A stretch of 64,000 nt of DNA from Terriglobia bacterium (lineage in GTDB: Bacteria > Acidobacteriota > Terriglobia > 20CM-2-55-15), in assembly GCA_963664115.2 (NCBI GenBank), contig CAXWPJ010000012.1, positions 525,356-589,355 of the forward strand, read 5' to 3'. The position numbers and the translations under genes were made by a program. This document shows positions 17,570 to 57,953 of this stretch, in pieces. The notes below the pieces were generated by a model. That model saw nothing but the letters and a program-made list of their open reading frames with translations, had not been told where the DNA came from and ran no database searches. The number at the start of each line of letters is the position of its first letter. Position 1 is the stretch's first letter.

Positions 17570-17918
17570 TGATTTATCAGGACTTGACCCGTCATCTCTG
17601 TCTCCGCCAACTTCCCCGAAGCCGACTTCTGGGTCTCTAATACCGACCATTCCTAAACACAAGGCGACTAGGGAGGAGTAATCGGGTGTTCTGCTTCGTG
17701 CCCCTCGACATAACACCCATGCCGCGACACTGTCTGCGCTCCGATCGTCTTCAGACCCTTCTTATTCCGCTTATCCGCCGTATTTTTTTGATTCTTTTAT
17801 GATGAAGGATCTTTCCCTTGCATTCGATAAATGCCTTTGATGCAACAAAAAGTTCTTTTACCATGCACCTGTTGGAACTGGTGTGATTCTTAAAGGTTTT
17901 GTGCACAAATATTAAATA

Positions 17919-18500
17919 GTGAGGAATTTTTATTTTCTTATGAGAGGCATAGTTGCTGCGACGTTACTCACGGTTCTTATGGCAGGTACTGCAAGGGCGC
18001 AAGAGCCTGTTCCAGAGGATTTTTCTTTCTATTATTCTGTAAACAGCATGGGTTCCGAGCGTAGCTACGATAGCAGCGAAAATATGCGGAGATTGCCGTT
18101 GCCATGTTTTGATGATTATTTTTTTTATGCGCGGTTAACGCCTGTGCAAAAAGGGGAGATGGAGCGCCAAGAGGTCCTCGACGTGTTGCATAGTTATGAC
18201 GCAATAATGAAAAATGACCTTTTGTCTGTGAGAAGAGATCTCACACAACCTCCTGATGGTTCTCCTGAAGGGGCTTTGGGATTGCCTTTGGCTGTGACAA
18301 GCATCGGATCGAGCAGGATCAGCTGAACTGTTCAAGGTCAATTTGGGTTTGCGGTCAATGGAATGAGGATGTTTCTCAACTTTAATGAAAAAACTCGTGA
18401 TGCTAAATGGAGGGATGTGCACCAAGTTGTTCGCGGCGTGTTACAGCAGGTAGATGGTGCATATGAGTTTCCAGATAATGAGTGTTCAGGTGACCAGTAA
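17919..18500 (+). pseudogene. Low-GC secreted hypothetical protein with internal TGA at 18324-18326
   Basis: Signal peptide (TARA-Q). The frame stays open past the TGA to TAA at 18500. Confidence 0.5.
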
Positions 18501-18918
18501 TTCGCAAACTTTCTCTGAACGTTGCCAGTATCATTAATAGTGCAAACCCCAAGCGGTACTCTAAAAATCAGAGAGCGCCGCGCGACGGCCTGCGGCCGCG
18601 CGCGGGTTGAAATAACACTCATACGACGACATTGCCAGCGCTGACATAGTCGTCAGACCCTGCTTGTATCGCTTATCCGCCTCGCAGCCCTCCGAGAGTT
18701 AAACCTCGACAAACGCCGTTTCGTTTACCGATCCAAATTCAACGTCCCAGAAGTCGGCTTCTGGCAACCAGTTCTAGCTTTGGAACGAGTGGATTGGAAG
18801 CAATGATTGAATCAGCGGGATTCTCAACGTCCGAGAAGATGATTTGTCAGGACTTGAGACGGCAGAGAAGATTTCGTAGTGGCCAAGTTAGGTCACGGAT
18901 CGCATTGGATGAATGCGA

Positions 18919-19491
18919 CTACAGCTGGAATTTCAGTCTTGTTTGGAGGCGGCGCGGAAGGTGCCCGACGTCGTTGTAAGTGACAAGCACGATCCTCCCG
19001 TCTGACTTGATTACGACCTCGCTGATCCCACAGTTGTCTGTTCCCAGCCGGGTCCAGTTGTTACCAGAGTCAGCAAGGAGTCGGGAAACGAGGAAACGGA
19101 TCAGGTTACCGTGAGAGACTATGATCTCGTGCTTGTCGCGCCCGCGTGCCGGACGCAGAAAACTGGAGAAAGCAGCCGCGGCTTGCTTCTGCCCAGCCTG
19201 CAAATATTCCACGGGTACATCCTTGAAGACACGACTTGGAAGAAAGCATTCTCGAAGAATTCTCCTCCTCGTATACGGAACACCATCAAGATTTCGACGG
19301 ATGATCTCGGCAGTTTCAACCGCACGGATCAGGTCACTGGAATAGATAGCAGTTACTGGCAGAGAACGAAGTCTCTTCGCGGTTAGCTGCGCCTGCTTTT
19401 TTCCACGGGGAGTCAGACGCTTGAGCGAGGGAGGCTGAGCTTGCAAGTGATACTCGCCATGGCGGACGAAGTAGATTGTACGTGTCGCCAC
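18919..19491 (-). CDS. Histidine phosphatase family protein
   Basis: IYFVRHGE, YSSDLIRAVETA and IVSHGNLI motifs. GGAGG RBS precedes GTG 19491. Confidence 0.9.
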   Translation of the reverse strand: MATRTIYFVRHGEYHLQAQPPSLKRLTPRGKKQAQLTAKRLRSLPVTAIYSSDLIRAVETAEIIRRNLDGVPYTRRRILRECFLPSRVFKDVPVEYLQAGQKQAAAAFSSFLRPARGRDKHEIIVSHGNLIRFLVSRLLADSGNNWTRLGTDNCGISEVVIKSDGRIVLVTYNDVGHLPRRLQTRLKFQL

Positions 19492-19620
19492 TGAGCCTCC
19501 GACCTCGGTTAAGCGGTAGCCACAGGGTACGACACCAAGCTCCAGCAGCCTGAACAAGAATGTGCGGCTTAAGTCCTGCGCAGTCCACATCGTGGACAAG
19601 AGTGACCTGTCTCCGTTAGG

Positions 19621-21003: not shown

Positions 21004-21282
21004 CAGGCCCTGACGATCAGGAAGCGTACCCAAGATGAATTTGCCTAAAATCGAAGGCGATAGAAGCGGTTTCCGCAATTCCTGTAGCGAAAGGGGAGTA
21101 CGAAGAACAGGAGAAGCCGTTCGAGCCAGCGCCGACGAGACCGGTGAATCTCTTTCGAGCTGCATCGGGGGCATTGCTCTCAATTTCCGACAAGATGATT
21201 TCTCAGGACTTGACCGCGAAAAATTACGGCGTCGGCACCCGATGCTTCAGTTCTAAAATCAGTTCAGGCCGATGTTGATTTA

Positions 21283-21703: not shown

Positions 21704-21811
21704 CAGGAGAGCCGAGAATCCGCTGTTCGCCCTTTCGATTTGAAGTCGTTCTCAGCGCGGTAGAAACACGGCAGAAAACAGAAATTACAGTCCTCAACGT
21801 CCGAGAAGATG

Positions 21812-23063
21812 ATTCAGATCAACCGGTCGATGCAACACCTGCGTTTAATGTCTCTGCCGGATTAGCGAAGTCCAGCGTCTCACGAGGTCGCCCGTTGAGC
21901 TTCCTTGCGATCATATCCAAATGCTCCTGTGAGTGAACCGACAAGTCCGTACCTTTAGGGAAATACTGTCGGAGCAAACCGTTCGTGTTTTCGTTCGAAC
22001 CCCGTTGCCAGGGACTCCTCGGATCGCAAAAGTAAACGGCAATGTCGGTGGCCAGAGTGAACCGTTTGTGATTGGCCATTTCCAATCCGCGATCCCAGGT
22101 CAGTGTTTTATAGAGTTCGGTCGGGAGTTTGTCTGCGTGTTCGATCAGCGCGTTGATGACGGTTTCGGTTTCCTTATTCGGAACCTTCACCCGCATCACG
22201 TACCGGGAGAAACGTTCGACCAATGTCGCAATGTAGGTGTTGTTCGAACCCGCTATGAGATCCCCTTCCCAGTGTCCGGGGACCGCGCGATCTTCAACCG
22301 AAGCCGGGCGCTCACGGATCGATATCAGATCCGGGATCTGCCCGCCACCCCGGCCTTTGCGACTGGCATGCTGGGACCGGCGAATCGTGCGTTTGGTCCG
22401 TAGATGCTGTGTCAGTTCTTTCTTCAGAGCCCCGCGGGCCTGGATGAAAAGGCTGCGATAGATCGTTTCGTGTGACACGTAAAGTGACTCGTCGTCTGGA
22501 TATTCGCGTTTCAGCCAACCCGCAATCTGTCGCGGTGCCCAATCCTCCCGGAGCTTCTCTTCGACGATCCCGCGTAAGCTGGGATAGCGGATCAGTCGAC
22601 ATCTCTTCGGGCGGTGAGCCCGTTCCCATGCGCGTTCATCCGCCTCCAACGCTCGATAGTTATCATAGCCCCCATTGCGACCGATCTCCCGACTGACTGT
22701 GGAGGGTGTACGCGACAGCGACTCGGCAATTGAACGGATCGATCCCTTGGCGGCAATGCCTCGGGAAATCTCTTCACGCTCGGCGAGGGTCAGCGCCCGC
22801 TTAGAGCGGCATCGTGTCCTGGGACAGATTCCACCATACGGTGCGATCTGACCATAAACCGAAGAGCCCTCCTTTCCGAACACACGTCCGATCGCTTTCA
22901 GACTCTCTCCCCGCTGCCAGCGAATCCACACCTCGTCTATATCGGCGAGTGTGTAGCCTCGCCGCACCCGGTCTTTACTCTGTTTCTTCCGTCGTTTCTT
23001 ACGCATACACTCCACCTCCTCCTTTTAGGTACAGTGTTGCATCGATCTGTTGAGACCACCTCG
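21812..23063 (-). mobile_element. IS30-family element (transposase 21819-23015) inserted in the centre of a 40-bp repeat
   Basis: GHWEGDL, TWDRGLE and PWQRGSNENTNGLLRQY motifs. Inverted repeats TCAACnGnTCGATGCAACAC. The flanks rebuild the repeat. Confidence 0.92.
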
Positions 23064-23155
23064 TTTCTCAGGACTTGACCTCGCTTTTCGTTCCAGGTTC
23101 GGTGACCTAATGGATGGTGGCTCACTTGCGGTGGGCACTCATTCAGAAACAGCGG

Positions 23156-23317
23156 CTACTTCTTCTTAGCCCTCTTGACGGAGGGCCGCTTGGGAAAGCA
23201 CTGCCCATGGTAGACCTTGTCATCGGCAGCAGCCTGGTCTTCATTGGGTGAGATTCGAACGCGACAGTGTTGACACCAGACGCGAACGTCCGGGGTCGTC
23301 TCTTTCTTCGCTTTCAC
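23156..23317 (-). CDS. 53-aa basic protein with CxxC...HxxC putative Zn site (absent from ORF track)
   Basis: AGGAGG RBS, GTG start, sequence VKAKKETTPDVRVWCQHCRVRISPNEDQAAADDKVYHGQCFPKRPSVKRAKKK. It is the only ORF between two repeats. Confidence 0.6.
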   Translation of the reverse strand: MKAKKETTPDVRVWCQHCRVRISPNEDQAAADDKVYHGQCFPKRPSVKRAKKK

Positions 23318-23614
23318 CTCGACCTCCTGAGGGGGGCCACTTAACCCCCTGGTGGATTTCTCAAGGTCCGAGAAGATGATTTCTCAGGACTTGAGAATCA
23401 TTTTCACGGTTGAAGGCTCAGAGCCCTTTTGTCATTCGATAGCTTCATTCTCTCCCACTCTGAAATCTCTTCCCTCCCCGCACGGTCCGTTGCAATAATT
23501 ACGTCCTGTTGAACTGAAAGGTTGAATGGACTGAAGCGAGGAAGCATCTCAAGATCCTGAAGGATGATGTTGGGCTGACAATAACCATAGTAAGCTCAAC
23601 GATGAGAGGAGGAC

Positions 23615-24754
23615 ATGGTGGCCGCGTTCTGGAAATGGTTCCAATTGTTCTGGTGTTCCTTGATCAACACCCTCCGACTCTTTCTCGGTAGGCCCCCCTC
23701 GATGTCGTGTTGGTTGAAAAGCCATCCGAAGGTCGCAAACAGCATCAAATGGCAGTTCATGTTTCAAGGCTCGGCCTATGACATTCCTGAAACAGCCAAG
23801 CGGGCATGGCCGAACTGGTCTTCTCAAGAAAAGTCTCGGCTGATTACTGCCTTCAATGAGATGTGGCAGTGGATGAAGGCTCAGTCCGGAACTTTCTCGG
23901 CCGGCGGAGAAGGCATGGTTTACCCGCCTATCAACGTCAGGGATACTACGAACGATAACGGTTCTCCGTGGACCGGAGTCAGCCAGGATTACGCCTGGGA
24001 CCTGTTTGTTCGATGGATTGCACTTGAACTTGTCGTAGAAATCAGCAGCTACGTTTCCTGGTCGGTTACGGCCTATGACGAGGAGCAACTTCAAGTGCTG
24101 TTCGACAGCGTTGCGATCATGTCGCGGTTGTCAGATAACAGCTTCACGCTTGCTACCGGGAGTCCAGGGCACTCTAACTATGTCAAGCGCAAGGACAATC
24201 TCGGCACATCCCTAATCGCGCCGCCGCAGTATACTTACGCTTTTCTCGTCAATAGAAATATCGTCGGTGCTTCCCGGATAGAAACTATCGGGAATCTTCT
24301 GCAATGGGTCTCCGACAGTCTGGCCCACTATTACGGGGCCTTCGTGTACCAGGAGACCGAAAACCACTGGCAGTATCGGGGCATCCCTCCGATTACCCGT
24401 ATCATAGAGGGAACAACTAATCCTACTGTCGGTTCGGGCGGACAATTCGATCATTGGACCGCGGGTTGCCACGGCACGACCGGACTCATCCGCAACGTAT
24501 TGAGAGCGCTAAATATTCCGGTACACATCTCGACTGTGTGCGGTCACTCGCAGGCGTTCTTCATCACCGAAGGCCTTTACCTCGACCATGGTGATAACCC
24601 CTACAACATCACCTTCAAGAACACCGGCCAGCCGGCATCCGCTCTACTAATCGATCGCGGCACCTATGTCTCATGGTTTGGAACAAGCACCGACAATCGT
24701 AGCAATGGATGCGACAAGATCGGACATCAAGTAGACGTGCTGGCTGGAAATTGA
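23615..24754 (+). CDS. Hypothetical protein, possible transglutaminase-like Cys-His-Asp domain
   Basis: 379-aa ORF with RBS and the motif AGCHGTT..LRALNIP..GHS..LYLDHGD. Confidence 0.55.
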   Translation: MVAAFWKWFQLFWCSLINTLRLFLGRPPSMSCWLKSHPKVANSIKWQFMFQGSAYDIPETAKRAWPNWSSQEKSRLITAFNEMWQWMKAQSGTFSAGGEGMVYPPINVRDTTNDNGSPWTGVSQDYAWDLFVRWIALELVVEISSYVSWSVTAYDEEQLQVLFDSVAIMSRLSDNSFTLATGSPGHSNYVKRKDNLGTSLIAPPQYTYAFLVNRNIVGASRIETIGNLLQWVSDSLAHYYGAFVYQETENHWQYRGIPPITRIIEGTTNPTVGSGGQFDHWTAGCHGTTGLIRNVLRALNIPVHISTVCGHSQAFFITEGLYLDHGDNPYNITFKNTGQPASALLIDRGTYVSWFGTSTDNRSNGCDKIGHQVDVLAGN

Positions 24755-24986
24755 GGTCCTCAGACTCGTGGTCCGATTGTCGTTAAATCAAGTTTCTTCG
24801 CGCAAAGTGTCTGAGTCATCCGGAGTCTCTATTCCGTTGAACAACTAACCCGCGAAATCTCTTCCCTCGCCGCACGGTCCGTTGCAATAATTACGTCTTG
24901 TTGAAGGGAGGGAGAATATGGTCGAGGAAGAGTCTTCGGTCCCACAAGGTGGTGGGAGCATCAGGTGGACATAAAGAGAGCAGAGC

Positions 24987-25400
24987 GTGAATCTATTTCT
25001 AGCTTCTCCAAGTGCGATAGTAAGTCAGAGGTACGATCGTCTCACCATCGTCTGCTTTGGGATTGTTTGGGCAGTCTACGCTTACCTGCCGCACGTTGCG
25101 ACGCGCTTCCTACGTCCCGAGGAACAACCACCGCCCGGCGATATTAGGTGGTTATGGGCTCCCGCCTGTGCCGTTACTCTTATCTATATCTGTTTCCCTA
25201 TCATTCTCCGACTAGACAAACTTTGGAAGATATTCACTTTCATTTCAGTGGGCTTGGCAATGTATCTGGCCCACGTCGGCGTTGCAGGTTTCGGCATAAT
25301 CGATTTGTCATGGTTCGGGTTCTATTACGGCAGTCTCGGCATGATTCTGCTTCTTTGGAATTCCCCCGATAAACCAGACGATTCAGTTAGATTTGTTTAG
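24987..25400 (+). CDS. Small 4-TM membrane protein
   Basis: Four hydrophobic segments. Start codon uncertain. Confidence 0.5.
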   Translation: MNLFLASPSAIVSQRYDRLTIVCFGIVWAVYAYLPHVATRFLRPEEQPPPGDIRWLWAPACAVTLIYICFPIILRLDKLWKIFTFISVGLAMYLAHVGVAGFGIIDLSWFGFYYGSLGMILLLWNSPDKPDDSVRFV

Positions 25401-25748
25401 TTTGCAGGGCTGACAGCAACCAGCCGCAAATTCCGTCGCCCCCCTCAATTTTTGAGTCAGAAATTTTTTGAGTCCCGTACTTCGATAACTACTTTATGGA
25501 GGCTCAATCGTTTGGTTCCATCCGACACCCTTGTCGATTTTCCCGTCAGGTTTTTTTCCTACGGTTTTTTGCTTGGGTTTTTTTTGATTGAAACTACATA
25601 CACGTCGACGCTATCGAGGTGCTGTCATCAAGGGTTGATTCTCGCTTTTTGGTCGTCCCGACGGCTGAGTCTTGTGGTTGGATTCTGTCGTTGATCGAGA
25701 GAACGGAAATGTTTTGCATGAAAACGCATAGCATAAGCGTATGTAGAT

Positions 25749-26279
25749 ATGAAGTCGATGACGCGAACCGAATTTGAATCGATTGTGAGTGAACACCAGG
25801 CCATGGTCTACAGCATCGCTTACAATTTTTCCGGTGATGCCTCTGCGGCCGAGGAAATTGCACAAGAGGTGTTTCTACAATTGTTCAAAGTCAGCGACCA
25901 ACTCGGGACACTGGCACACGTGAAACACTGGCTTCGCCGTACTACGACCCACCGGTCGATTGACCAACTTCGGCGGAAGGGCCGTCGTGGCGAGGTGCCG
26001 ATGGACGCCCTTCCCGAAATATCGGTGCCCAACCGCGAACGCGACCCCCTGATCACCCAAAGGCTCCAGCGATTGGTTCGTGCGTTGCCCGAGAAGCCGC
26101 GGGCCGTCGTTCTTCTTCGTTACGGCGAAGATATGGATGTGGAAGAGATCGGAGAGATTCTGGAGATGCCTGTAGCGACAGTATGGAGCCATCTCAAGCG
26201 CAGCATTGCGATGCTGCGAGACAAATTCAGCCTCGACACGGAGGAGAAACATGAACGAGTTCGAACGGAATCTTCGTGA
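25749..26279 (+). CDS. ECF RNA polymerase sigma-70 factor
   Basis: AEEIAQEVFL region 2, and LPEKPRAVVLLRY..EEIGEILEMPVATV region 4. Confidence 0.9.
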   Translation: MKSMTRTEFESIVSEHQAMVYSIAYNFSGDASAAEEIAQEVFLQLFKVSDQLGTLAHVKHWLRRTTTHRSIDQLRRKGRRGEVPMDALPEISVPNRERDPLITQRLQRLVRALPEKPRAVVLLRYGEDMDVEEIGEILEMPVATVWSHLKRSIAMLRDKFSLDTEEKHERVRTESS

Positions 26280-26580
26280 CGCACTGGCGCGACGTTCCCC
26301 GAGGGAAGGTTTCACCGACAGGGTTCTGGACCAGGCCAAGCATTCCCGTTTGCAGCACAGTTCCCGTCGATGGGTCCGTTGGGCGGTCGCCGCTGCGGCG
26401 ATTCTGGTTCTGACCGCGGCTCTGTTGATCCGTTCTGATCGGATCGAACGTGCCCGTGGCCAGCAGGCTAAGGAAGAGGTGCTGCTGGCGCTGAGAGTGG
26501 TAGGTCGAACGCTGAACCAGGTAGAGGAACGCGTCCGGCAGGCCCAGCCCTTACGCGTCGGGCAACCGGACAACAACTAA
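26251..26580 (+). CDS. Single-TM anti-sigma factor
   Basis: Overlaps the sigma 3' end and shows P.GFTDRV followed by WAVAAAAILV TM segment. Confidence 0.75.
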   Translation: MNEFERNLRDALARRSPREGFTDRVLDQAKHSRLQHSSRRWVRWAVAAAAILVLTAALLIRSDRIERARGQQAKEEVLLALRVVGRTLNQVEERVRQAQPLRVGQPDNN

Positions 26581-26595
26581 AGTTGAGGAGGTTTC

Positions 26596-27192
26596 ATGCA
26601 CCCATTAATTCTGACTTGCATGCTTATCTTTGGTGTACCGCTTGGGGCACAGACGATCGACCTTTCGTCTCTGGAGGGCCTGAGGGAAAATGCGGATAAC
26701 GTCGTTTCGGTGAGTATCGGTCCGGAACTATTGGCGTTCGCAAACGCCTTCTTGTCCGATGAAGACGAGGAAGAGGCCGCGGCACTCCAAGTCACCGAGC
26801 GCCTTAAAGCCATCGGGGTTCGCGTTTTCGAGTTCAACGAGCCGGGGCAATACGACACTGAAGATCTCGACGCCGTCTGGAAACAGTTGGACGCTGACGG
26901 CTGGAATCGAATCGTTGAAATCGACCAAGAAGACTCCCAAACTGGTGTTTGGATGTACATGGAACCGGAAGTGGCAAGGGCCTCAGAAACGGTAGGTGGT
27001 ATGGCTGTATTGGTCGAGGAAGACGATAAAATCGTTCTAGTCAATATCGTTGGGTCCATCAGTCCCGCGGATCTCGCCGCTCTGGGTGCACAATTCGACT
27101 TGAACGACTTAGCTGATCTCGCTGATCTTGGGAACGACGATGAGGAAAATGATGAAGACGACGATGCTGATGGTGACAATGAGAATGATTGA
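26596..27192 (+). CDS. DUF4252-like periplasmic protein
   Basis: Signal peptide, IVLVNIVGSISP.DL..LG motif, and the usual position after a sigma/anti-sigma pair. Confidence 0.75.
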   Translation: MHPLILTCMLIFGVPLGAQTIDLSSLEGLRENADNVVSVSIGPELLAFANAFLSDEDEEEAAALQVTERLKAIGVRVFEFNEPGQYDTEDLDAVWKQLDADGWNRIVEIDQEDSQTGVWMYMEPEVARASETVGGMAVLVEEDDKIVLVNIVGSISPADLAALGAQFDLNDLADLADLGNDDEENDEDDDADGDNEND

Positions 27193-27352
27193 CGATTCTG
27201 TCGTTATATCTGGCAGGCAGGAACGCCGTACAACCTCGACTCTAAGTCGTAGGGTTTAGAGGACCACTCAACGGACTCGATGGTTCCTTCCAGAGAATGT
27301 GAATTCTCAACTTCCGACAAGATTTATCAGGACTTGAGAACTATTTTCACGA

Positions 27353-27646
27353 TCATCTCTTTGGAATTTCACGATTCAATTCTCTGAAAGTACCGCGGCG
27401 GTTTATCAAATCAATATCGGTCCACTGGCCGTCAATCTCAACGACAACCCTGCCTTGGGGACCACCTGTGCCCGACCCAAGTCTGGTGATCAGGATACCG
27501 GCCCGACCAGAGAGTGGTATCCAAGACTCTTCGCTGACACCCGGAGGCATCGCGGGTTCCGTTTGCGCCAGTGTGGCGCGTGCGGGGTTCAGCAAGACGA
27601 CAGCTACCAGTGCTACCATCAAAACAGCCAAGAAAAGAGATTTCAT
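27353..27646 (-). CDS. Small secreted hypothetical protein (single-gene unit between repeats)
   Basis: GGAGG RBS and signal peptide. Fills the 400-bp unit 27304-27704. Confidence 0.7.
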   Translation of the reverse strand: MKSLFLAVLMVALVAVVLLNPARATLAQTEPAMPPGVSEESWIPLSGRAGILITRLGSGTGGPQGRVVVEIDGQWTDIDLINRRGTFRELNREIPKR

Positions 27647-28176
27647 TGTTATCCTCCGTTGCTTGATTAAGCAGTTAGACAGCAGGGGGCAGGATCGGTT
27701 TAATTCTCAACGTCCGAGAAGATGATTTGTCAGGACTTGACCCAGGGGAATTAGGGAACCGGCACACGTTCCTTCAGTTCGGTGGCGCCGGCGATGGCCG
27801 TTTGGCGTGCCCTCATACGAAAACAACAACCATAACGGAGGCTCCGTCCCTTGAGACTCCGGCCACCCTCTATCCGTTCGGCCTCTGAATTTCCTCGTGC
27901 GGAATTCTTTCGAGCAATTTTTTCAACTTCAGTAAAGGGATCATGGCGAAGTTGAAAAGCCTCTACATTCGGTTGATGGCCTGCGAAAGAAAGTGCTTCC
28001 CGACCCGAAAAGACCCCCCCAAAAAAAACTGGACGAATTACAGATATTAGGGATATTGTTTCAATCACAAATAACAGAATCTTTCCAATGTACAAATTTC
28101 TGAACGTATTCCGGCCGGAATTACGTCCTGTTTGGTTCATAGGAGCGTCGACAAACGCGAGTCTAAGGAGGACCCT

Positions 28177-29809
<1,633 letters not shown>

Positions 29810-32673: not shown

Positions 32674-32744
32674 AGGACTTGAGCGGTTAGATCATCTACC
32701 GTGCGGACTGACTTCCCGTAGTCCAGTTCTAGGAATTGTCTCGG

Positions 32745-42242: not shown

Positions 42243-42307
42243 ATTCCTCCCTTACCCAGGAGTGTCCCGATCTCGTAGTGACCGAGTTTGGTGCCCGATT
42301 GCATCAT
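42243..42307 (-). pseudogene. 5' remnant of a Ser/Thr kinase gene
   Basis: MMQSGTKLGHYEIGTLLGKGGM. Leader is shared with 48985 and 57750. Confidence 0.7.
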
Positions 42308-42728
42308 TAAAGTGTGTCGCTGGAAATACCGAGAAAAACTCTGCAAAGGATACTAAGGGAGGAAGTTAGGCGCTATTAAATTCTCAGGTCAAACGTTAGA
42401 TTCTTATCGGGAGTAACCCGGCGAGAGGCGAGGGGGACAAGTGGTGATGAATGACCGGGTTACTTTCGATGAGGGCGTTTGAAGGAAGCCGCCCACAGGT
42501 CAGGCGGCTATGTAGTTTGAAAGCGGTTTCGGGTATCGACGACGTGGAGGTGGACCGAGTAAGCGCCCCGGTTGAAACCAAAAGGTCGGTTTGAAGCTGG
42601 GGATTTGAGACTCACCGTATCTGAGAATGATGACTGAAACACTGTTGTCGTGGTGAATTTGGGCAACCAGACGCACGTCGGCTGAACGTGCCCGAGCACG
42701 TCGCCAGTTCCAATGGAATGGGGGGGTG

Positions 42729-44791: not shown

Positions 44792-44983
44792 AGAGATATC
44801 CCTCCTGTATCTCTACAACCCGATACCCTCCCTCAGTCAGGCCCGGTCCTTCACCACGCACGCAAAGCGTCCGCCGCGCCAGCGGCTTAGTTCAAACGAC
44901 ATTGTCGGACGTTGAGAAAAGGCCTGGGAAATGGGGGTTCTCAAGGTCCGAGAAGATGATTTATCAGGACTTGAACTCGAAAA

Positions 44984-45125: not shown

Positions 45126-46253
45126 CTAACGAGCCGGATCACGGACTACGTTGCGCAGGTCCTCGTACGTTCCGACATCGCCATGAATGCCAACGATTGT
45201 TTGCACGTTCAAATTCAATGCCTCGATGCCTTCGAGGAGCTCGCGCGGCAACTCGCCCGGCCGTATGCTCCCCCCCTCGCGAGGGCTGACATGGTCCGCC
45301 TCGATCAGAATGCGTTCTCCTGGAAGATAAATGATCTGGTAATCGTCCGCGTGCGATGTCGCATATGGGTAAATTTCAATTTGTCGGCTCCCGTCGGTCA
45401 GGATCTTCGGTTCCGTGATCCCTTCGACGACGGCTGCATCCCGGCTCTGTTCCAAACGCTCCGCCCGGATGGTGTGCGGTGCTCTGGCGATGCGCTCATA
45501 GTGTGCTGCACTGATCGCCGGCGCGACAATCGTTGCCCCCGCTTCCGTGTATGTCCGTATGCCGCCTGAGTGATCGTTGTGGAAATGGGTTGGAATAACG
45601 TAGCGGATCGGCTTCGTTGGAAAGCGCTGTCTGATCGCCGCGAGAACGCTTTCTGAACGCTCTTCATAGAGCGGCGCCTCAACGACCACAAGATGGTCCT
45701 GAAACTCGATGAGCACGCTGTTGTGCGACGTTCCCCGGATATGAATGACGCCGTCGGCGAGCGGCACGAACTCCACCGGTATGTCCCTGCCAAAATCCAG
45801 GTAGCTGACATTCATCGCCAGACGGCGCAAGAGCCATTGCGAGGGGATCGGCTCTCCTTCGATGTCTTGACGCCGTAGGGCCTCAGGCACCAGGAACGTT
45901 TCGGGCGAGAGCTCAACATTGTGGCGCACGGACTGGAGGCGTTCGCTCTGAAGCAGTTTCCCGTTGATTTCATGTCGCAGGTCGAAAGGCACCATGATGC
46001 CATCCACAGACTGCCAGTCTGCGTAACGCAGGGTGTACCGGCTATCCCCGTAGATGGGGTCGTGTTCGAGGATGTCGACTTGTGTAAGGAGCTTAGTCCG
46101 GACATCCAGGTAGATTTGAAATTCCTCACCGTCGTTGTCAAAGCTCAGGACGCGCTGTGGCAGCCCCTCCACTTCGGTATCGGGGAGCCGCGTCAGGCTC
46201 GCCCGTCCCAGCGCCGTGAGCACGAGGGCATTGGCTGAACGCTGTTCTTCCCG
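45126..46253 (-). CDS. MBL-fold metallo-hydrolase, 5'-truncated by IS
   Basis: THFHNDHSGG and GIHG motifs. Confidence 0.85.
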   Translation of the reverse strand, partial: REEQRSANALVLTALGRASLTRLPDTEVEGLPQRVLSFDNDGEEFQIYLDVRTKLLTQVDILEHDPIYGDSRYTLRYADWQSVDGIMVPFDLRHEINGKLLQSERLQSVRHNVELSPETFLVPEALRRQDIEGEPIPSQWLLRRLAMNVSYLDFGRDIPVEFVPLADGVIHIRGTSHNSVLIEFQDHLVVVEAPLYEERSESVLAAIRQRFPTKPIRYVIPTHFHNDHSGGIRTYTEAGATIVAPAISAAHYERIARAPHTIRAERLEQSRDAAVVEGITEPKILTDGSRQIEIYPYATSHADDYQIIYLPGERILIEADHVSPREGGSIRPGELPRELLEGIEALNLNVQTIVGIHGDVGTYEDLRNVVRDPAR

Positions 46254-47743
46254 TGTAGCCCGTCAGAGCATTTCGCACAGAATCCGCTGAAAAACTAAGA
46301 GACACTTTTCTAATCAGAACGATCTGAAGGAGGATCGAATGAGTGAGAAAGTGTCGGCAGAGAATCGGGTACGGGAGATTCGTCGGAAGACGAGGAAGAA
46401 GTACTCGTCGGAAGAGAAAGTGCGGATTGTGTTGGAAGGACTGCGAGGTGAAGAGAGCATCGCAGCGCTGTGCCGACGCGAAGGGATTCCGTCAAATCTG
46501 TATTACCGGTGGAGCAAGGACTTCCTGGAGGCGGGGAAGAAACGGCTGGCTGGGGACACGAAGCGGGAAGCGACATCGAGCGAAGTCACTGAATTACGCC
46601 AGGAGAACGAACAGCTGAAGCAGGTGGTAGCTGAAATACTGCTAAAGAATCGTTTTCTGAAAAAAACGTTGAACGTAACGGACTCCGAGAGCATCGATAT
46701 ATGAGGCAATCGGGATCTGAGAAGCTGGAGACGATCCGAGTGGTGGAAGACTCGGAGTTGTCGGTGACAGCGACCCTCCGGGAGCTGGGCGTCCCCCGCA
46801 GCACGTTCTACGGTTGGTATCGACGATACAAAGAGCGTGGCGCAGCCGGCTTGTTAGATCGGCATTCCGGCCCCGGCTTCTGCTGGAACCGGATTCCGGG
46901 ACCGGTGCGGGAACAGGTGGTCGAAACCGCGTTGAACCACCCGGAAGCCTCACCGCGGGAACTGGCCTGGCAGATCACCGACACCCAGGACTACTTCATC
47001 TCCGAATCCAGCGTGTATCGGATTCTGAAGAGATGCGACCTGATCACCAGTCCCGCATACATCGTGATGACGGCCAGCGATCACTTCCAGCAGCCAACCC
47101 GGCGTGTGAACGAACTCTGGCAAACTGATTTCACTTACTTCAGGGTCGTCGGTTGGGGTTGGTACTACCTGTCGACCGTGCTGGACGATTACTCTCGCTA
47201 CATCATCGCCTGGAAGCTCTTTCAAACCATGGCCGCATCTGACGTTCAGGACACGCTGGACGTTGCACTACAGGCGACAGATGTCGGACAAGTACAAGTC
47301 CGGCACCGACCGCGATTGTTGAGCGACAACGGCCCCTGCTACGTATCGCACGAACTCAAAGACTATTTACAACGTCGTGGTATGGAACACACCCGGGGTG
47401 CGCCCTATCACCCGATGACACAGGGCAAGATCGAACGCTATCACCGTTCGATGAAGAACGTGGTCAAGTTGGAACACTACTATTATCCGTGGGAACTTGA
47501 GCAGGCGATCGCGCAATGGGTCGAACACTACAACCACCATCGGTATCACGAATCTCTGAACAACGTGACACCGGCTGACGTGTTCTTCGGGAGGGATCAG
47601 CAGATCCTTGCACGTCGTGACCAGATCAAAAGAAAAACGCTGGCTCGACGCAAAATCGAGAACCTTAGGATTGGAGTGGTATAACTTCAAAACCGTCTCT
47701 TAGCTAAATGGTCTTTTTGTCCGAATTATTCTGACGACGTACA
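46254..47743 (+). mobile_element. IS3-like element, full copy with variant orfA allele
   Basis: 1490 bp, near-identical to 29810-31299. Confidence 0.95.
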
Positions 47744-48985: not shown

Positions 48986-49196
48986 GTTTAAAGTGTGACG
49001 CTAAGTGGAACAGCGAAATTCTGGTAAGTCTATCTACATGGGAGGGATATTGGCAAGGAAAGGGTCAACTCCCGAAACTTGGCAAATTCTCAACGTCCGG
49101 GAAGATGATTTCTCAGGACTTGAGAATCATTTTCATGGTCATTTAGGGCACCGGCACAACACAAGTTTTCTCTCAGGCGCGCAATTGTACGTGGAC

Positions 49197-49532
49197 TCAC
49201 GAGACAATCGGTCGGGGATCGAAGAATGCCCTAACTTCGACGATGCTACCATTCGAGACCCGAAAGTAGTCACACACCTCGATCACTTCGCCGGCGGCAA
49301 CAAACTGGAAGAGGACGCACGCGTGCTCCCCCTGCACAATCTGTTGCTTGACTCGAATGTCGGTCATTTGATGGGCTACCTGAGTAAGAGTTTCGACCAC
49401 AACTGCTCTCCCTACCAACTGCTCTAACACCGGTCCGTCGAACGGGATGCGTGAAGTTGTTGGTACATGCGTGAAGTTGTTGGCCTGAAGACCCTCAATA
49501 TATCGAACGGCGCATTCTGCTGTGTTTGACAC
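49197..49532 (-). CDS. SnoaL/NTF2-like protein
   Basis: VCDYFRVSNGSIVEVRAFFDPRP C-terminus. Single-gene unit between repeats 49087 and 49590. Confidence 0.75.
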   Translation of the reverse strand: MSNTAECAVRYIEGLQANNFTHVPTTSRIPFDGPVLEQLVGRAVVVETLTQVAHQMTDIRVKQQIVQGEHACVLFQFVAAGEVIEVCDYFRVSNGSIVEVRAFFDPRPIVS

Positions 49533-49736
49533 TCGGTGGCATCCTCCGAAGTAAAAGCGTCAAGAGCTTGGTACAACCCAACCGTGCAATTCTCAACGTC
49601 CGGGAAGATGATTTGTCAGGACTTGAGAATGGATTGCAGCGGTAGACAGAGACGGACGGCCCACTTTACGGTGCTTCTTCAAGTTCCTACATCCGTTTCT
49701 GGCAATAGATGTTGGCGTCGCGTCCGGACGCGGGGT

Positions 49737-50576
49737 TCAGGACCGCTTCGTCCGAACCAATGCTGGCGCACGCTCGGCGACGGCAGAAATAAGGGAACCC
49801 ATCTTCGGATGATCTGGCTCGAGGTCGACCTGAAGGCCGTGTCGTTTAATGGCAATGCTACAGATCGGGCCGATCGACGCGACCAGGACGTCTTGAAAGG
49901 CCAATCTCAGGGAGTCGGCCACTTCTGGTCCGGCAACCTGGAAGAGGTGATCCACCTGAATCGCGCTCATGAACAGCGCGATGTCGATCTTGCCCTCGAG
50001 AATCTGCTGGATCGCCTCGTGCAGAGGCCTCAGATTCTCGGGAAGAGCCCAGCGGTAAACCGGTACGGTCAACACTTCTGCGCCGCGCTCTCGCAGGCCC
50101 GCTAGCAGCTCCGGATTCCGTTGGCCATATTCCTGCACTGCGACTCGCTTGCTGGGCAGCTCAACCCGTTCGTCCAAAGTCGCCAGCAGTTCCCGCCAAG
50201 TGTTCGGCTCAGGAACAGATATCGTGGGTTTCAAGCCGAGCTCGCGGAGCGCGGCCACTGGCTTCGGTCCTCGTGTCACGGTAGTTGCAGAGGCAAGGGC
50301 AGCAATGAATTCCTCTCGATCCATCTGCTCGAAAACCGCTTGCGCGAGAAATCGGGTCCCGACTCCTGTCAGAAGAACCACTATATCGATCTCGCCGCGA
50401 CACAACGCGCGCGCAAACTCGACCGCCGGCTCGTTTTTAGATAGTGGCACTTCCTGTAGAGCGGGCGCGCTCATCGGCTCTCCTCCCTGTCGGCGTATCA
50501 GCTCCGAGACCTCATTCGCGCGCCGACTTTCGAACGTGACTAGACACAGCCCGCTCAGTCTTCCAGAATCGCTCAT
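49737..50576 (-). CDS. hemD: Uroporphyrinogen-III synthase
   Basis: ESRRA.E, LTGVG, RGPKP, VYRWALP and ASIGP motifs. Single-gene unit. Confidence 0.85.
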   Translation of the reverse strand: MSDSGRLSGLCLVTFESRRANEVSELIRRQGGEPMSAPALQEVPLSKNEPAVEFARALCRGEIDIVVLLTGVGTRFLAQAVFEQMDREEFIAALASATTVTRGPKPVAALRELGLKPTISVPEPNTWRELLATLDERVELPSKRVAVQEYGQRNPELLAGLRERGAEVLTVPVYRWALPENLRPLHEAIQQILEGKIDIALFMSAIQVDHLFQVAGPEVADSLRLAFQDVLVASIGPICSIAIKRHGLQVDLEPDHPKMGSLISAVAERAPALVRTKRS

Positions 50577-50911
50577 CGTGAAAACGTCCTACAGCAGACA
50601 GGTCCGGACAGAGTGTCAAGTACTTCAGCACTGTCTGCCAGAATGAGTCCGAATCGCTTTTTATCTCCCAGCCATTGAACCTTTTAACCAGCGAAGACTC
50701 CTTCCAACTACAGTAAATCAGAAGGCCATGGCAGTCCACTTGGACGTATATTTGGCTTATCGGAAAGTGGTGGGTTCAATTCTCAATGTCCGCGAAGATG
50801 ATTTATCAGGACTTGAACTCAGAAATCAGGGCACGGGCACCCGCTCCTTCAGTTCTTCAAACCAGTTGAAGTGTATAACGGCTCGCTCTTCCCGTCTTAG
50901 CTTCACGTATC

Positions 50912-52417
50912 TTATAGCTGCGCGCACACCGCCTTCACCTCGGTGTAGAGCTCAAGAGCGTCATGCCCCATTTCACGACCCCACCCTGATTGCTTATATC
51001 CTCCGAAGGGGAGCGCCGCATCGAAAATATTGTGGCAATTGATCCAGACCGTTCCAGCTCTAAGTTGAGCCGCAATACGATGGGCCTTGTTGATATCTTT
51101 CGTCCAGATTGCAGCGGCTAATCCAAAAATGCTGTCATTGGCCTTGGTGATGACATCTTCAAGATCTGTAAAGGGTTCGGCGCACACAACGGGTCCAAAG
51201 ATTTCTTCCTGAATGACCTTCATGTTTTGATTGGTATTGACCAATACGGTGGGTTCGACGAAGTATCCTTTGTCACCCAACCGGTTTCCCCCGACCACAG
51301 CTTTGGCACCTTCGGTCATCCCCGACTCCAAGTACGCTAATACACGTCGCTGCTGTTCATCAGATACCAGCGGGCCCATCTGTGTGCTGGTATCCATTCC
51401 TGGACCAACCTTAATCTGTTTCGCTTGATCAGCGACCCCCGCCACAACCGTGTCGAAAATTGCTTTTTCAACATACAGGCGTGACCCAGCACAGCAACAC
51501 TGTCCATGATTGAAGAAGATCGCACTGGCCACGCCTGGAATGCTCAAATCTAAATCTGCATCGGGCAATACCAGGCTTGGAGATTTTCCACCCAGTTCGA
51601 GTGATACTTTCTTCAAGTTTCCGCCAGCCGCATTCAGGATCAGTTTGCCAACTTCAGTGGAACCGGTGAAGGCCACTTTGTCGACATCCGGATGTTCGGC
51701 TAAGGCAGCCCCGGCAGTTTCCCCGAACCCTGTGACAACGTTCACGACGCCCGGTGGGAATCCCGCTTCACAGAAAAGTTCACCGAGCAGAAGCGCAGAC
51801 AACGGCGTCTGTTCAGCTGGCTTCAACACAACCGCACACCCTGCAGCTAGAGCCGGCCCTAACTTCCAAGCAGCCATCAACAGCGGAAAATTCCACGGAA
51901 TAATTTGTCCGACCACGCCAACAGGCTCACGCAGGGTATAGGCATGAAATTGTGCTCCCGGTGCGTAGGGAACAGAAATGGGAATGGTGTTACCTTCGAT
52001 CTTCGTAGCCCAGCCGGCCATGTAACGGAATAAATCAGCCGCTAGAGGCACATCGGCAGCGCGGGCCACACCGACTGGTTTTCCGTTATCCAACGACTCC
52101 AGCTGAGCGAGTTCCTCTGTTTTAGCCTCTATCAGATCAGCCAGTTTCCAGATGAGTTTCCCACGTTCAGAGGGAGTCATTGTCCGCCAAGGGCCTGTTT
52201 CGAATGCAGCTCGTGCAGCCTTCACCGCCAGATTTATATCTTCCTTTTGTCCATCTGGGATTTGGGACATGACCTCCCCGGTGGCCGGATTAAAAGTAGA
52301 AAATGTTGTCCCAGAAATGGCATCAACCCACTTGCCATCTATTAGCATCTTACGAGTAGAAGAAAGAAATTGTTGGACGTATGGAGTCACGGCTGTTTCA
52401 GTGGTCGCAACGCTCAT
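50912..52417 (-). CDS. Aldehyde dehydrogenase
   Basis: IIPWNFP, FTGSTEVG, LELGGKS, GQCCCAG and EEIFGPV motifs. Confidence 0.95.
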   Translation of the reverse strand: MSVATTETAVTPYVQQFLSSTRKMLIDGKWVDAISGTTFSTFNPATGEVMSQIPDGQKEDINLAVKAARAAFETGPWRTMTPSERGKLIWKLADLIEAKTEELAQLESLDNGKPVGVARAADVPLAADLFRYMAGWATKIEGNTIPISVPYAPGAQFHAYTLREPVGVVGQIIPWNFPLLMAAWKLGPALAAGCAVVLKPAEQTPLSALLLGELFCEAGFPPGVVNVVTGFGETAGAALAEHPDVDKVAFTGSTEVGKLILNAAGGNLKKVSLELGGKSPSLVLPDADLDLSIPGVASAIFFNHGQCCCAGSRLYVEKAIFDTVVAGVADQAKQIKVGPGMDTSTQMGPLVSDEQQRRVLAYLESGMTEGAKAVVGGNRLGDKGYFVEPTVLVNTNQNMKVIQEEIFGPVVCAEPFTDLEDVITKANDSIFGLAAAIWTKDINKAHRIAAQLRAGTVWINCHNIFDAALPFGGYKQSGWGREMGHDALELYTEVKAVCAQL

Positions 52418-52675
52418 GGCAAACCTCCAGATTCATCATTCAGCACTGAAGTGTACACACCTTTAACTATGGCAAAGAATTATGACGTGCTTGCTCGTGT
52501 GACTTCAACTCAACTTCATCATATGGGCAGGCGATTGGATCTGGGTAGTTCCGGGATGTCGGTCAGCTCTTCGCCCTGGCTCGTCGGAACTTGAGAATTG
52601 ATTGGCAGGCTGGTTCCGCCAGAGAAGCCGCTTTACTACGGCACCGGCACCCGTTCCTTCAGTTCTTCAAACCAG

Positions 52676-55191: not shown

Positions 55192-55593
55192 CTCAGGGAA
55201 CTCTCGCGGCTGTGGTGGCTCGTTAGGCGGCCTGGCGTTCAGGACCTAGCGGGTTGCTCAACAGTTTCGCCAATCGCCGCTCTTTGTCAATGCGGTCCTT
55301 AACCCCGACGTCGCCGTATTGAACTACCCCGCAGCACAGCCCATGCCGGTCTTGGCGAGGAGGCTCAGTCTTCGTAGTGGCTAAGTTTGGAACCGGCTGC
55401 ATTGGATGAATGAGACTACAGGTCGGATGTCAGGTCAATGAAACAGTCACATTGACGGTTTGGGGACCATACAGGAGTTAGGAGCAATGGGCCCTCAATT
55501 TCCGAGTGCCGCCAGCGAGGCGCCTCGACGCCCCAGATGTGGAACTTATTTCGGTCAGCATCCTGAAGGTCCCGGTGCGCAGGAAGCCATCGG

Positions 55594-57474
55594 TCAAGGG
55601 ACCGGTGACGTCGTCTGGAGGCGACGCCACACCGGAATCAGCGCCACGCCGACCACGATCCAGCCGGCTCGCCACACGCCCGCAGGCAGGCCGAAGGGCG
55701 TGGGGCTGCCGACGAGCCAGGAGCCGAGGCCCACGATGAGCGCAAAGACGCTGCCGGCGGCCACGAAGGTCGCCGCCAGACCCACCCAGAAGAGGCGGGC
55801 GGGGGTTGCGGGCGCCTCATCACAGCGGGTAGCGATAGCGGACCAGGCACCCGGCGGTCGAATGCGCCGGTAGAAGTCGTCGAGGTGCTGCGCATCGACC
55901 GCCGGCGTGAGCAGCGAGGCGGCGACCGAGGCCAGTGTCGCGATGAGCGTCATCGCCACCATTCGCACCGCTTCATCGCCCGGCGCGGGGAGCGCGTAGA
56001 GCAGCACCGGCGCGGCGACCAGGGAGATCGCGATCGGGGCCAGCTCACCCCAGGCGTTCTGCCGATGCCAGAACCACCGCAGGAGCAGGGGGATCCCCAT
56101 CCCGGCGCCGAAGAGCAGGCTCGTGGTCCACGCCTCCTGGATCGAGCCGAGCCGCGACATGATGGCGAGGGCGATCACGAGGATCACGATGTTGGAGAGG
56201 CGGGCGATCCACACGAGGCGGCGGGGGTCTGCCTTGTGGCCACGAATCCGCTGGCAGTAGAGGCGGTCGTAGAGATCGTTAGTCCAGTAGCCGGCGCCCC
56301 AGTTGAGGTGGGTGTCGATGGTGGACGCGAGCGCGGCGAGCATCCCGACCAGCATCAAGCCGAGCGCGCCGGGGGGGAGGTGGTCGCGGATTCCGAGCAC
56401 GAAGGTCGCCTCGCGCTCCGCCACCGCCGCGCCGGTGATCTCACCGGTCGCCGGGTAGAGCACCATCAAGCCGACGACGATCGGCAGCCAGAGCAGGGTG
56501 CGCAGCAGGCTCTGGGTGTACGTGAACACAACCGCCGCGCGTTGGGCATCCTGGTCGCTTCGGCAGGCCATCGAACGCTGGGCGAGATAGCCGGTGCCGT
56601 CGCTGTTGGCTTGCGCGATCCATTGCAGTCCGAGAATGGCGAGCACCGAGAGAGCGCCTGCGGCGCCCTCGGTGGGGCTGAAGCTCAGCATCTCGGCGGC
56701 GCGCTCGGTGCCGTAAAGGGATTCGAGTCTGCTTCCGATCGCCCCGAGCCCCCCGATCTCGTCGGTCACCACCCACGCATACGCGAAGGTCGCGAGCAAG
56801 GCGATGAAGAGCTGCACCACGTCGGTGTTGATGACGCTGCGCAGGCCCCCGGTCGCCGAATAGAGGGTCGTGAAGGCGACGATGAGGAAGATCGAGAGGA
56901 GGTTGGAGGCGCTGAGCAGCCACACCTCCGGCGCGCCGACGTTGACCGTGAAAGGCGTGCCCACCCACTGCACCGCCGCGGCCAACGGGGCGAGCATCCC
57001 GTCGGGCAACCAGAGGTGCCAGGTCAGGAAGGGCTCGGTGATCCGGGTGGCCGCGAGCAAGACCATCGCGAGCACCACGCAGTTGATCACGGTGCCGAAG
57101 TAGATCGCCTTCACGTAGCGCAGCAGCTCTGCCGCCCGGCCACTGTAGCGTTGCTCGCACAGCTCGGCGTCGGTCAGGATCGATGCGCGCCTCCACGCAG
57201 GGGCGAGCAGGAAGCCCATGAGCAGAAACGCGAGGGAGTAGACCCAGAAGCGCCACAGCGCGAAGATGCCCGCGGTCGCGATCAGCCCCGTGACCACCAG
57301 CGGGGTGTCGGCCGCGTACTGGGTGGCGGCCATCGAGAGCCCCGCCTTCCAACCCGAGATTCTGCGCCCGGCCAGGAAGTATTCCTCAGGGCCCTGCGAG
57401 GCGTCCTTGCGTGCCGTAAACCCGGACCACAGGGCATACGTGACGAAGGCGAGCACCAGCAGGAGATCGATCAC
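55594..57474 (-). CDS. Sodium:solute symporter family protein (markedly GC-rich)
   Basis: EYFLAGR, SMAATQYAADTP and GGLRSVINTD motifs with many TM helices. Confidence 0.9.
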   Translation of the reverse strand: MIDLLLVLAFVTYALWSGFTARKDASQGPEEYFLAGRRISGWKAGLSMAATQYAADTPLVVTGLIATAGIFALWRFWVYSLAFLLMGFLLAPAWRRASILTDAELCEQRYSGRAAELLRYVKAIYFGTVINCVVLAMVLLAATRITEPFLTWHLWLPDGMLAPLAAAVQWVGTPFTVNVGAPEVWLLSASNLLSIFLIVAFTTLYSATGGLRSVINTDVVQLFIALLATFAYAWVVTDEIGGLGAIGSRLESLYGTERAAEMLSFSPTEGAAGALSVLAILGLQWIAQANSDGTGYLAQRSMACRSDQDAQRAAVVFTYTQSLLRTLLWLPIVVGLMVLYPATGEITGAAVAEREATFVLGIRDHLPPGALGLMLVGMLAALASTIDTHLNWGAGYWTNDLYDRLYCQRIRGHKADPRRLVWIARLSNIVILVIALAIMSRLGSIQEAWTTSLLFGAGMGIPLLLRWFWHRQNAWGELAPIAISLVAAPVLLYALPAPGDEAVRMVAMTLIATLASVAASLLTPAVDAQHLDDFYRRIRPPGAWSAIATRCDEAPATPARLFWVGLAATFVAAGSVFALIVGLGSWLVGSPTPFGLPAGVWRAGWIVVGVALIPVWRRLQTTSPVP

Positions 57475-57598
57475 CTGCGCTTTATATCACAGCCCACCAG
57501 TGCTATTGGGGGCGCGGAGATTTCCACGAGATGACTGCCCCCAACGATCGACCGCGCCGCACCTTCACAATCATCTCGCACCCCGATGCGGGCAAGAC

Positions 57599-57750
57599 GA
57601 TCAGCATCCTTCGCAAACTCTTCGGGCAAAGTCTTAAATAGCGACTTCCCGTCCCAGTTTCATATCCCGCGCACGCCACACCTCACCCATACCGCCCTTG
57701 CCCAGAAGGCTCAGGATCGCGTAGTGACCGAGTTTGGTGCCTGTTTTCAT
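57599..57750 (-). pseudogene. 5' remnant of a Ser/Thr kinase gene
   Basis: [38 protein letters not shown], a frameshift, then KTLPEEFAKDAD. Confidence 0.85.
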
Positions 57751-57953
57751 GTTTAAAGTGTGTCGCTGAAAATACCGTGAAAAACTCGGTAAAAGATACT
57801 AGATGAGGGAGTTAGGCGCTATCAAATTCTCAAGTCCCTGCAAACGACCTTCTCGGACTCTGAGAAAAGGCCCTAAAAACGGGATTCTCAAGGTCCGAGA
57901 AGATGATTTCTCAGGACTTGACCCGGAGAATTAAGGCACAGGCACCCGTTCCT

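Follow-up and report, generated by a model that had tools for sequence, protein, structure and literature searches.

A short repeated DNA site marks the breakpoints of gene units that have moved within the genome of a Terriglobia bacterium (Acidobacteriota) and between species. The repeat runs through a stretch of 64,000 nucleotides, referred to below as the window (assembly GCA_963664115.2, contig CAXWPJ010000012.1, positions 525,356 to 589,355). An original prediction, made from the letters of this stretch alone, had taken about 21 copies of a 40-bp repeat to delimit an integron-like array of gene cassettes, with a hairpin-forming site and a recombinase encoded outside the window. The repeat is real and undescribed, and it delimits mobile gene units across a chromosome. 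Its organisation, with inverted sites of two spacer types and fused units between direct sites, is closer to that of dif modules than to that of an intI-attI-attC integron, and our best reading is of a dif-module-like cassette system that has grown out of a kinase module.

A conserved site at the breakpoints of gene units

A position weight matrix built from the repeat gave 186 matches at the threshold of 18 bits in the source assembly (G000; 4.89 Mb in 12 contigs, C1-C12; G001-G004 and others are comparison genomes) and none in two shuffled genomes. A separate, spacer-neutral matrix gave 176 intact sites on 9 of the 12 contigs, again with none in shuffled DNA, to which half-site scans added 57 orphan left arms and 38 orphan right arms; dozens of further copies are broken up by insertion sequences. 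The conserved core is shorter than the 40 bp first proposed, at 34 bp (positions 4-37 of the 40-bp frame; 14-6-14), with the consensus TCAA-N-GTCC-GANAA, six-base spacer, TTNTC-A-GGAC-TTGA. Positions 1-3 track the left flank (mismatch 0.03 versus 0.33 at random; 22 pairs with that flank in common) and positions 38-40 the right flank (0.04 versus 0.61; 17 pairs). The arms are nearly symmetric, are conserved over 14 bp each, and lie around the 6-bp spacer in an AA-N6-TT geometry. The predicted arm motif, TTCTC-N7-GAGAA, is true of the consensus and not of individual copies, positions 14-15 and 26-27 of the 40-bp frame being highly variable. Spacers fall into two classes: GATGAT (class A, 131 of the 176 sites) and NNTCGT, mostly TGTCGT or GGTCGT (class B).

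In the source genome the copies proved to be clustered and polarised; the original prediction had proposed looking for clustering there and in related metagenome-assembled genomes (MAGs). The 176 sites form 43 clusters, and 130 of them lie in clusters of at least four, which together span 393 kb, or about 8% of the chromosome. Adjacent A sites are in direct orientation in 100 of 106 pairs in G000; in 21 of 22 cases a B site faces an A that is inverted relative to it, most units nevertheless being direct A-A. Back-to-back pairing with a B, at 17-20, 28-30 or 108 bp, was found for 28 of 279 A sites. Three bases are missing from the spacer in seven sites, and in two a left arm is joined to a second left arm at the spacer. 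A tRNA or tmRNA lies within 15 kb of 14 of the 43 clusters, where a rough chance estimate is about 12. Among 60 relatives the pattern occurs in eight, confined to the organism's own genus (4/4 genomes, with 89, 47, 14 and 2 copies) and a second genus in the same family (4/5 genomes, 1-6 copies each). Fourteen metagenome contigs carry the site, and the named records that have it are Terriglobia MAGs; it was absent from 400 other genomes of the phylum (0/400) and was not found in the viral contigs, plasmids or phages searched. G004 (L144, L354-L356) has class A-like sites with the spacer CCGGAT after kinase genes, repeatedly broken by elements of the insertion sequence (IS) family IS30, as if the system were decaying there.

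For the comparison between species, 60 loci chosen around sites were fetched from G001-G003 and multicopy DNA was dropped. Twenty-five of the 264 ends of the cross-species segments lie on a site in both genomes, compared with a mean of 0.37 and a maximum of 3 in 200 random shifts, and none of the 132 segments crosses a site. The segments are 88-98% identical, whereas the xerC/xerD loci of the same genomes are 77-87% identical, which points to recent transfer between species. We also compared 199 site-to-site units, not counting pairs that are duplicated assembly blocks. For several of them homology runs from site to site and the neighbours are new: a 1249-bp unit at 99.8% in C2 and C6, whose arms differ on both sides, a 349-bp unit at 96.8% in C10 and C6, a 675-bp unit at 90.5% in G000 and G001, and the window unit at 23398-27303, which recurs at 99.7% on C10 (G000:C10:212478). 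Finally, on C11 the sequence to the left of C6:27116(+) is joined to that on the right of C6:39774(-) within two opposed A sites, which is the product expected of an inversion.

Mobility at the site is well supported by comparison between genomes. Breakpoints that vary between strains and species coincide with the sites, rather than the copies being scattered or the breakpoints falling elsewhere. The proposal of a cassette-shuffling system stands as far as units have been moved and reordered with their breakpoints at the site; its attC-like single-stranded hairpin is not supported, for want of covariation. The assembly also holds near-identical blocks in different order at C6:1-46165 and C11:1-83160, suggesting that it contains two strain haplotypes.

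The Ser/Thr kinase-PD40 family and the array in the window

The original prediction overlooked a link between the sites and a Ser/Thr kinase gene family (Pkinase + PD40) that is expanded across the class. Class B sites lie ahead of a kinase-PD40 gene's promoter and 5' end; class A sites, inverted, follow its stop codon. A conserved promoter-like block follows 38 of 60 B sites and lies to the right of none of 302 A sites; a kinase gene start follows 31 of the 60 B sites, and 137 of the 302 A sites adjoin, on the other strand, the final codons of the family. A short linker connects A back to back with the next B; along the gene, the ancestral order reads A (inverted), linker, B, promoter, kinase, A (inverted). 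Most class A sites now form direct arrays around unrelated cargo, often with scraps of kinase ends; many left flanks retain a decayed B and promoter, and one full-length kinase gene lies between two direct A sites (C10:248430-251286). Among 30 kinase starts in G000, 26 belong to fragments and 18 have a site within 340 bp upstream. Kinase genes are flanked by sites in the two site-bearing genera only: of 30 loci examined, the 22 outside genera g1 and g4 had no site. In a sister genus (L349-L352; G026, G029) the kinase-PD40 genes form long tandem operons with overlapping stop and start codons and without sites, a second route of expansion.

Within the window, the matrix scan found 14 intact sites, 13 on the plus strand and one variant on the minus strand at 57827. 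Half-site scans added a copy with a 3-bp spacer deletion, five loci that are IS-split or truncated (halves at 17574, 21791/23065, 32673, 39137 and 44894/42380) and one degenerate copy. Counting halves, this makes 21-23 loci, in agreement with the predicted number, and the predicted single orientation apart from two variant copies was likewise borne out. The array is headed by the minus-strand class B site at 57827-57866 (spacer GGTCGT), which adjoins a sigma-70-like promoter, TTGATA-18-TAGTAT, at 57796-57825 (minus strand; a consensus match only, 1 found versus 0.1 expected), followed by a frameshifted kinase 5' fragment at 57600-57750 (minus strand). Back to back with this site, at 18 bp, is the class A site at 57885-57924.

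The remaining class A sites, all on the plus strand, begin with that at 18821-18860 (spacer GATGAT; 68.5 bits). The site at 21177-21216 is followed by a decayed kinase 3' relic (family D14), and similar relics follow the sites at 27704-27743 (..ELKERVPVP*), 34343-34382, 44938-44977 and 50780-50819. Three sites open units that were traced elsewhere: 23358-23397 starts the unit 23398-27303, 35091-35130 a YaeQ unit found in G001 at 96.5%, and 49590-49629 a HemD unit found in G001 at 98.4%. The copy with the spacer deletion, at 27304-27340, appears in intact form, the GAT included, in contigs from 3 of 4 runs. Further matrix hits lie at 33680-33719, 49087-49126 and 35944-35983, the last with a degenerate left arm (36 bits), and a degenerate site after the aldehyde dehydrogenase unit (52558-52597, plus strand) precedes a kinase 3' relic at 52638.

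Six of the seven intervals predicted to hold a single gene do so. They encode a 97-aa open reading frame (ORF) without a Pfam match (27341-27703, minus strand), an APH-family phosphotransferase (32685-33679, minus), YaeQ (35131-35943, plus), a SnoaL-like protein found in G002 at 90% (49127-49589, minus), HemD (49630-50779, minus) and an aldehyde dehydrogenase (50820-52557, minus); the seventh, 23080-23357, has no complete ORF of at least 70 aa. The Pfam assignments bear out the view that the cargo is functionally unrelated.

IS elements enter the site at fixed positions. In the window, an IS30-family element lies in the spacer between a left half (21791-21814) and a right half (23065-23081) of one site (21791-23081, plus strand), a right half-site follows an IS30 end at 17574-17590 (plus), and an IS110-family element (31298-32684, plus) ends in a site right arm, of which 32673-32684 remains. 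At 39137-39162 (plus) a spacer and right arm are preceded by the end of a repeated element in place of the left arm. The class B site that stands back to back, at 19 bp, with the A site at 44938-44977 is split: its left arm and spacer (TGTCGT) are at 44894-44918, an element comprising an IS91-family transposase and a tyrosine recombinase occupies 42394-44893, and the rest of the site, the promoter block and a kinase 5' fragment follow at 42238-42393, all on the minus strand. Across the genome, two elements that we take to be IS110-like from an N-terminal motif have 7/7 and 7/8 copies at the site, and IS110 elements confirmed by NCBIfam 11/12; for IS30 ends the figures are 5/8 and 3/8, for the IS91-integrase element 2/9 and for IS481 1/28. 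IS elements are reported to target attC and pdif in a similar way (PMC11187229, PMC10132070).

The IS91-linked element, also present on C1, C2, C3 and C12 of G000 and at L232-L259 in G001, begins GAAC and uses G|TT-type targets. Its IS91-family transposase is preceded by an integron-integrase-like recombinase, and the usual IS91 target is absent; many of the 19 G001 copies examined are at one end of another repeated, attC-like hairpin family. A multicopy IS481/IS3-like element (ORFs of 121 aa and 327-404 aa) occupies 7592-9680, 15978-17469, 29808-31299 and 46252-47743 of the window, with partial ends at 21282, 34449 and 54634. An Rfam scan of the window found group II intron domains only; a remnant with two such domains, at 38461-39077, adjoins a truncated site and an IS256-type element. 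Within an array interval, 28132-29814 encodes a 560-aa protein with collagen-like Gly-X-Y repeats.

Proposed strand exchange at the site and candidate enzymes

On balance we favour the view that the sites are the breakpoints of mobile units and the likely double-stranded target of a single-subunit, Xer-like tyrosine recombinase. That site-specific recombinase chemistry of some kind is at work, taking all candidate enzymes together, seems to us distinctly probable. The ancestral unit would have been a site-flanked kinase module alternating with a linker module, as the C and D types of dif module do. Once the B site had been lost and other DNA had taken the place of the kinase interior, units between two direct A sites with the same spacer would have resulted, and recombination of A with A could excise, insert, copy or invert such units, with DNA from related species entering by the same A-site route. 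Strand exchange would begin in the spacer, and the junction may move through the arms before resolution, since inner arm variants follow neither flank.

Among 243 pooled sites, in which kin are not independent, variants are linked within arms (4/6 block pairs at p<0.01) and show no linkage across the spacer (0/9 pairs at p<0.05). The predicted pairing of the arms as a hairpin is possible for good copies (z -4.6 at 23358) and poor for others (z -0.9 at 44938), and an A/B back-to-back pair can form a stem of 98 nt that is interrupted by a bubble at its centre (z -4.2). However, the test for compensatory change found the pair 15-26 paired in 35% of class A sites and in 34% of shuffled ones, a single pair out of 16 gave a marginal covariation result in class A, and A/B partners co-vary at 1 of 40 positions. 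Because compensatory change is lacking and some copies fold poorly, the site looks double-stranded.

Several observations weigh against the favoured reading as a whole. No cognate recombinase was identified in these assemblies. XerC and XerD are the only tyrosine recombinases common to the site-rich genomes G000, G002 and G003, and no protein of the XerS class passed the NF003462 cut-off in five genomes (0/5), no XerH-specific model having been used. The most plausible named enzyme, described below, was not found in G002-G004, and its homologues (in 10/60 relatives, 2/150 genomes of the phylum and 1 viral contig) are without the site. Two across-spacer pairs reach p=0.02-0.03 in per-genome subsets. 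Crossovers do not map to one bond: whichever flank is shared, the inner positions differ about as often as at random (0.47-0.48), with mismatch rates of 0.43-0.47 for 14-15 and 0.34-0.47 for 26-27. Homologous recombination within the 34-bp repeat could also give this pattern, which otherwise fits a spacer junction that migrates before resolution, as described for cer (PMC5357621). The junction between C6 and C11 could be an effect of assembly or of strain mixture, and no unit circle or empty junction was seen in the data, which are assembled contigs and unitigs that break at repeats; joints listed for the unitigs had short sides with letters in between and were set aside as evidence. A likeness of the reversed site to Helicobacter pylori difH, at 21 of 34 arm positions, was scored by eye and with no null (PMC2731167). 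Lastly, the proposed mechanism gives no account of how 176 compatible sites escape large deletions.

The search for the enzyme covered PF00589 (27 hits in G000, 39 in G002/G003 with 30 loci read, and 45 in G001/G004 with 30 loci read), our own hidden Markov model run over all G000 ORFs and the array loci, PF02899, NF003462, PF00239 and PF01797. None of these searches gave a shared site-linked enzyme, and in place of the expected single array with an adjacent recombinase we find 43 clusters with no conserved neighbouring recombinase. The enzyme may therefore be absent from the bins, lost or too diverged, or it may be a host Xer protein acting in an unusual mode. Serine resolvases (PF00239) are present, none of them among the proteins shared near sites. 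The best named candidate, encoded at G000:C5:52189-53139, is a recombinase of 316 aa with a B site on either side. Upstream of one of its homologues (L039:1363-1390, G040) is a near-perfect 11-6-11 Xer-like palindrome, which was not present at 14 other homologous loci.

Next in weight, although unlikely, is that a non-canonical site is used by host XerC, on its own or together with XerD and perhaps helped by an activator or accessory factor. Host resolvases would then complete a single strand exchange, as they do at cer, and the system would be a far-diverged chromosomal dif-module system. Besides XerC and XerD being the sole tyrosine recombinases that the site-rich genomes have in common, 118 of 176 sites have a left arm that agrees with the host dif XerC arm at 7-8 of 11 positions, and other Terriglobia have XerC arms of the form GTCCGATAA or GTCTGATAA. 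An exchange made by XerC only and resolved from outside, as described for cer (PMC5357621), would explain the decoupled arm variants, and XafT is reported to let Xer use non-canonical XerD arms (PMC9226527). The XerC and XerD of the host both exceed the TIGRFAM cut-offs, and its canonical dif, ACGTCGCATAA TGAGTA TTATGTCAAGT, is matched in 27 of 34 genomes of the family. On the site matrix, however, the arms of this dif score as non-members (-1.1 bits, and -10.8 for the XerD arm, versus medians of 18 and 20), and neither TTATG nor CATAA occurs in any of the 176 sites. Conservation reaches 14 bp per arm, and the recognition helices of XerC and XerD show no change specific to the site-bearing genera. 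The fifth innermost base, reported as crucial (PMC9226527), is reversed on both arms relative to dif (G in 171/176 and C in 169/176) and is the same as in difH. The statement that the site does not resemble dif is not supported, given its AA-N6-TT geometry and difH-like arms.

Two side observations concern the host Xer system. The XerD proteins of the family (L290-L306) have Gly, Ala or Met for the Gln of TRQ, the usual recognition motif, in site-bearing and site-free genera alike. Dif-like remnants at G000:C2:111513 and C2:750681, one of them 3.4 kb from dif, combine the host XerC arm and spacer with an altered XerD arm and are possible traces of elements that integrate at dif.

It is rather improbable that the site is an operator, or other protein-binding site, of the kinase genes, with the shuffling a by-product of IS-rich islands in which 34-bp repeats recombine homologously or slip. 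Such a view gains from the sigma-70-like promoter that adjoins class B (block at 38/60 B sites), from the spread of crossover points over the core and from the failure to find a recombinase. Yet an operator has no need for an invariant asymmetric spacer, a strict array polarity or a copy right after a stop codon, nor for being kept around cargo that has no kinase promoter (block right of 0/302 A sites). Furthermore, linkage breaks at the spacer yet spans equal distances within an arm, and damage is concentrated in the spacer.

We give very little credence to a single-stranded substrate, in which the hairpin of a site or A/B pair is recombined in the manner of attC or the CTX attP, or is cut by an HUH enzyme as in the repetitive extragenic palindromes REP and REPIN. 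Good copies and the A/B pair do fold, and the genome has both an integron integrase and genes like RAYT, the REP-associated tyrosine transposase. Against this stand the lack of compensatory change noted above, the scarcity of B partners (28/279 A sites) and the absence of RYYYAAC/GTTRRRY attC boxes from all 176 sites, which upholds the earlier statement that the site is not attC. The integron integrase, at G000:C9:714590-715759 (another is at L058 in G002), is 195 kb from the nearest site, and none was found in the fetched array loci; ten RAYT-like loci include one with a site, next to a tRNA att remnant, and the orthologues in G001-G004 are without it. The least probable driver of the shuffling is the integrase of the IS91-linked elements, the window copy of which was considered as cognate enzyme and rejected as a passenger: these elements are common near arrays, being found within or next to sites in G000 and G002 and close to sites in five genomes, yet the 19 examined G001 copies are at other GTT-type targets and never in this site, 2 of 9 G000 ends are in a site, and G003, with 47-60 sites, has no such integrase among 12 family hits.

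Relation to known systems

Our favoured reading, of mobile units bounded by a double-stranded Xer-like target, finds its closest parallel in the pdif/dif modules of Acinetobacter and in chromosomal dif module islands (PMC13141974, PMC12907356, PMC11705084). In both, a 6-bp spacer separates two arms, inverted sites enclose genes, fused units occur between directly repeated sites, and rearrangement takes place between sites of identical spacer; module types that alternate and differ in spacer are seen here in the B/A pairs. Neither carries a recombinase, and IS elements target the site in both. In contrast to dif modules, the sites described here do not look like host XerC/XerD sites (they lack the TTATG arm), and their arms extend over 14 bp and are nearly symmetric. 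Directly repeated units, the exception there, are dominant here, and about 180 sites in 43 chromosomal clusters are tied to a kinase family.

Sedentary chromosomal integrons and clusters of attC sites lacking integron-integrases (CALINs) also form long polarised arrays of small, unrelated, mobile units, with one unit in different positions and IS110-type elements aimed at the sites. Their attC sites have the boxes mentioned above and a conserved fold with variable sequence and length (PMC7439510), whereas the present site has no such boxes, no covariation of structure, and a fixed length and sequence. Cargo here is on both strands (32 versus 13), unlike that of integrons. Nor is there an intI or attI beside the arrays; CALINs also lack intI, so this alone is not decisive.

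The difH/XerH and difSL/XerS systems (PMC2731167, PMC5357621) share with the site a 40-bp frame, a 6-bp centre, G/C at the fifth innermost base, and an additional base, in matching register, in one of the arms. Those are single terminus sites, usually beside their gene, whereas the present site is multicopy in a host that has a normal dif and XerCD, and no XerS-class gene over the cut-off in five genomes. The attachment sites of integrative mobile elements exploiting Xer (IMEX; the fold-back CTX attP and the TLC attP) and cer offer back-to-back inverted sites with different centres, and a precedent for Xer with a poor XerD arm or one strand exchange (PMC5357621, PMC9226527). Unlike the present sites, IMEX integrate at a single dif; here no phage context was found, and A/B pairs do not co-vary.

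REP and REPIN sequences with RAYT are short, multicopy and intergenic, often lie just after stop codons, occur as paired inverted copies and are IS targets. The site described here differs from them in its invariant asymmetric spacer, its array polarity and the break in synteny at every site, and in having no link to RAYT loci.

A literature search covering sources other than subscription papers and supplements found no description of this site. It is likely to be where a recombinase docks, and would then be a gene-shuffling system separate from both integrons and the Xer modules known so far. To our knowledge, integrons and the dif modules of Acinetobacter are the only systems in which a repeated recombination site gives rise to arrays of exchangeable gene units. 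A third class of gene-cassette system, alongside integrons and the XerCD dif modules and with a 34-bp site of its own, served either by a dedicated recombinase or by a known one working in a new mode, is a real possibility, though we hold it a little short of probable. About 8% of a chromosome is organised by a site that had gone unrecognised, and its units pass between species. This raises the questions of which enzyme acts, how such a large number of compatible sites is prevented from deleting the chromosome, and how a signalling-kinase family became the chassis for cassettes; a new recombinase-site pair would also serve as a tool. If the third class is real, a Terriglobia lineage would have made a mobile Ser/Thr kinase module into a chromosome-wide platform for capturing and shuffling genes, with arrays on the scale of superintegrons that trade cassettes between species while remaining invisible to annotation tools.

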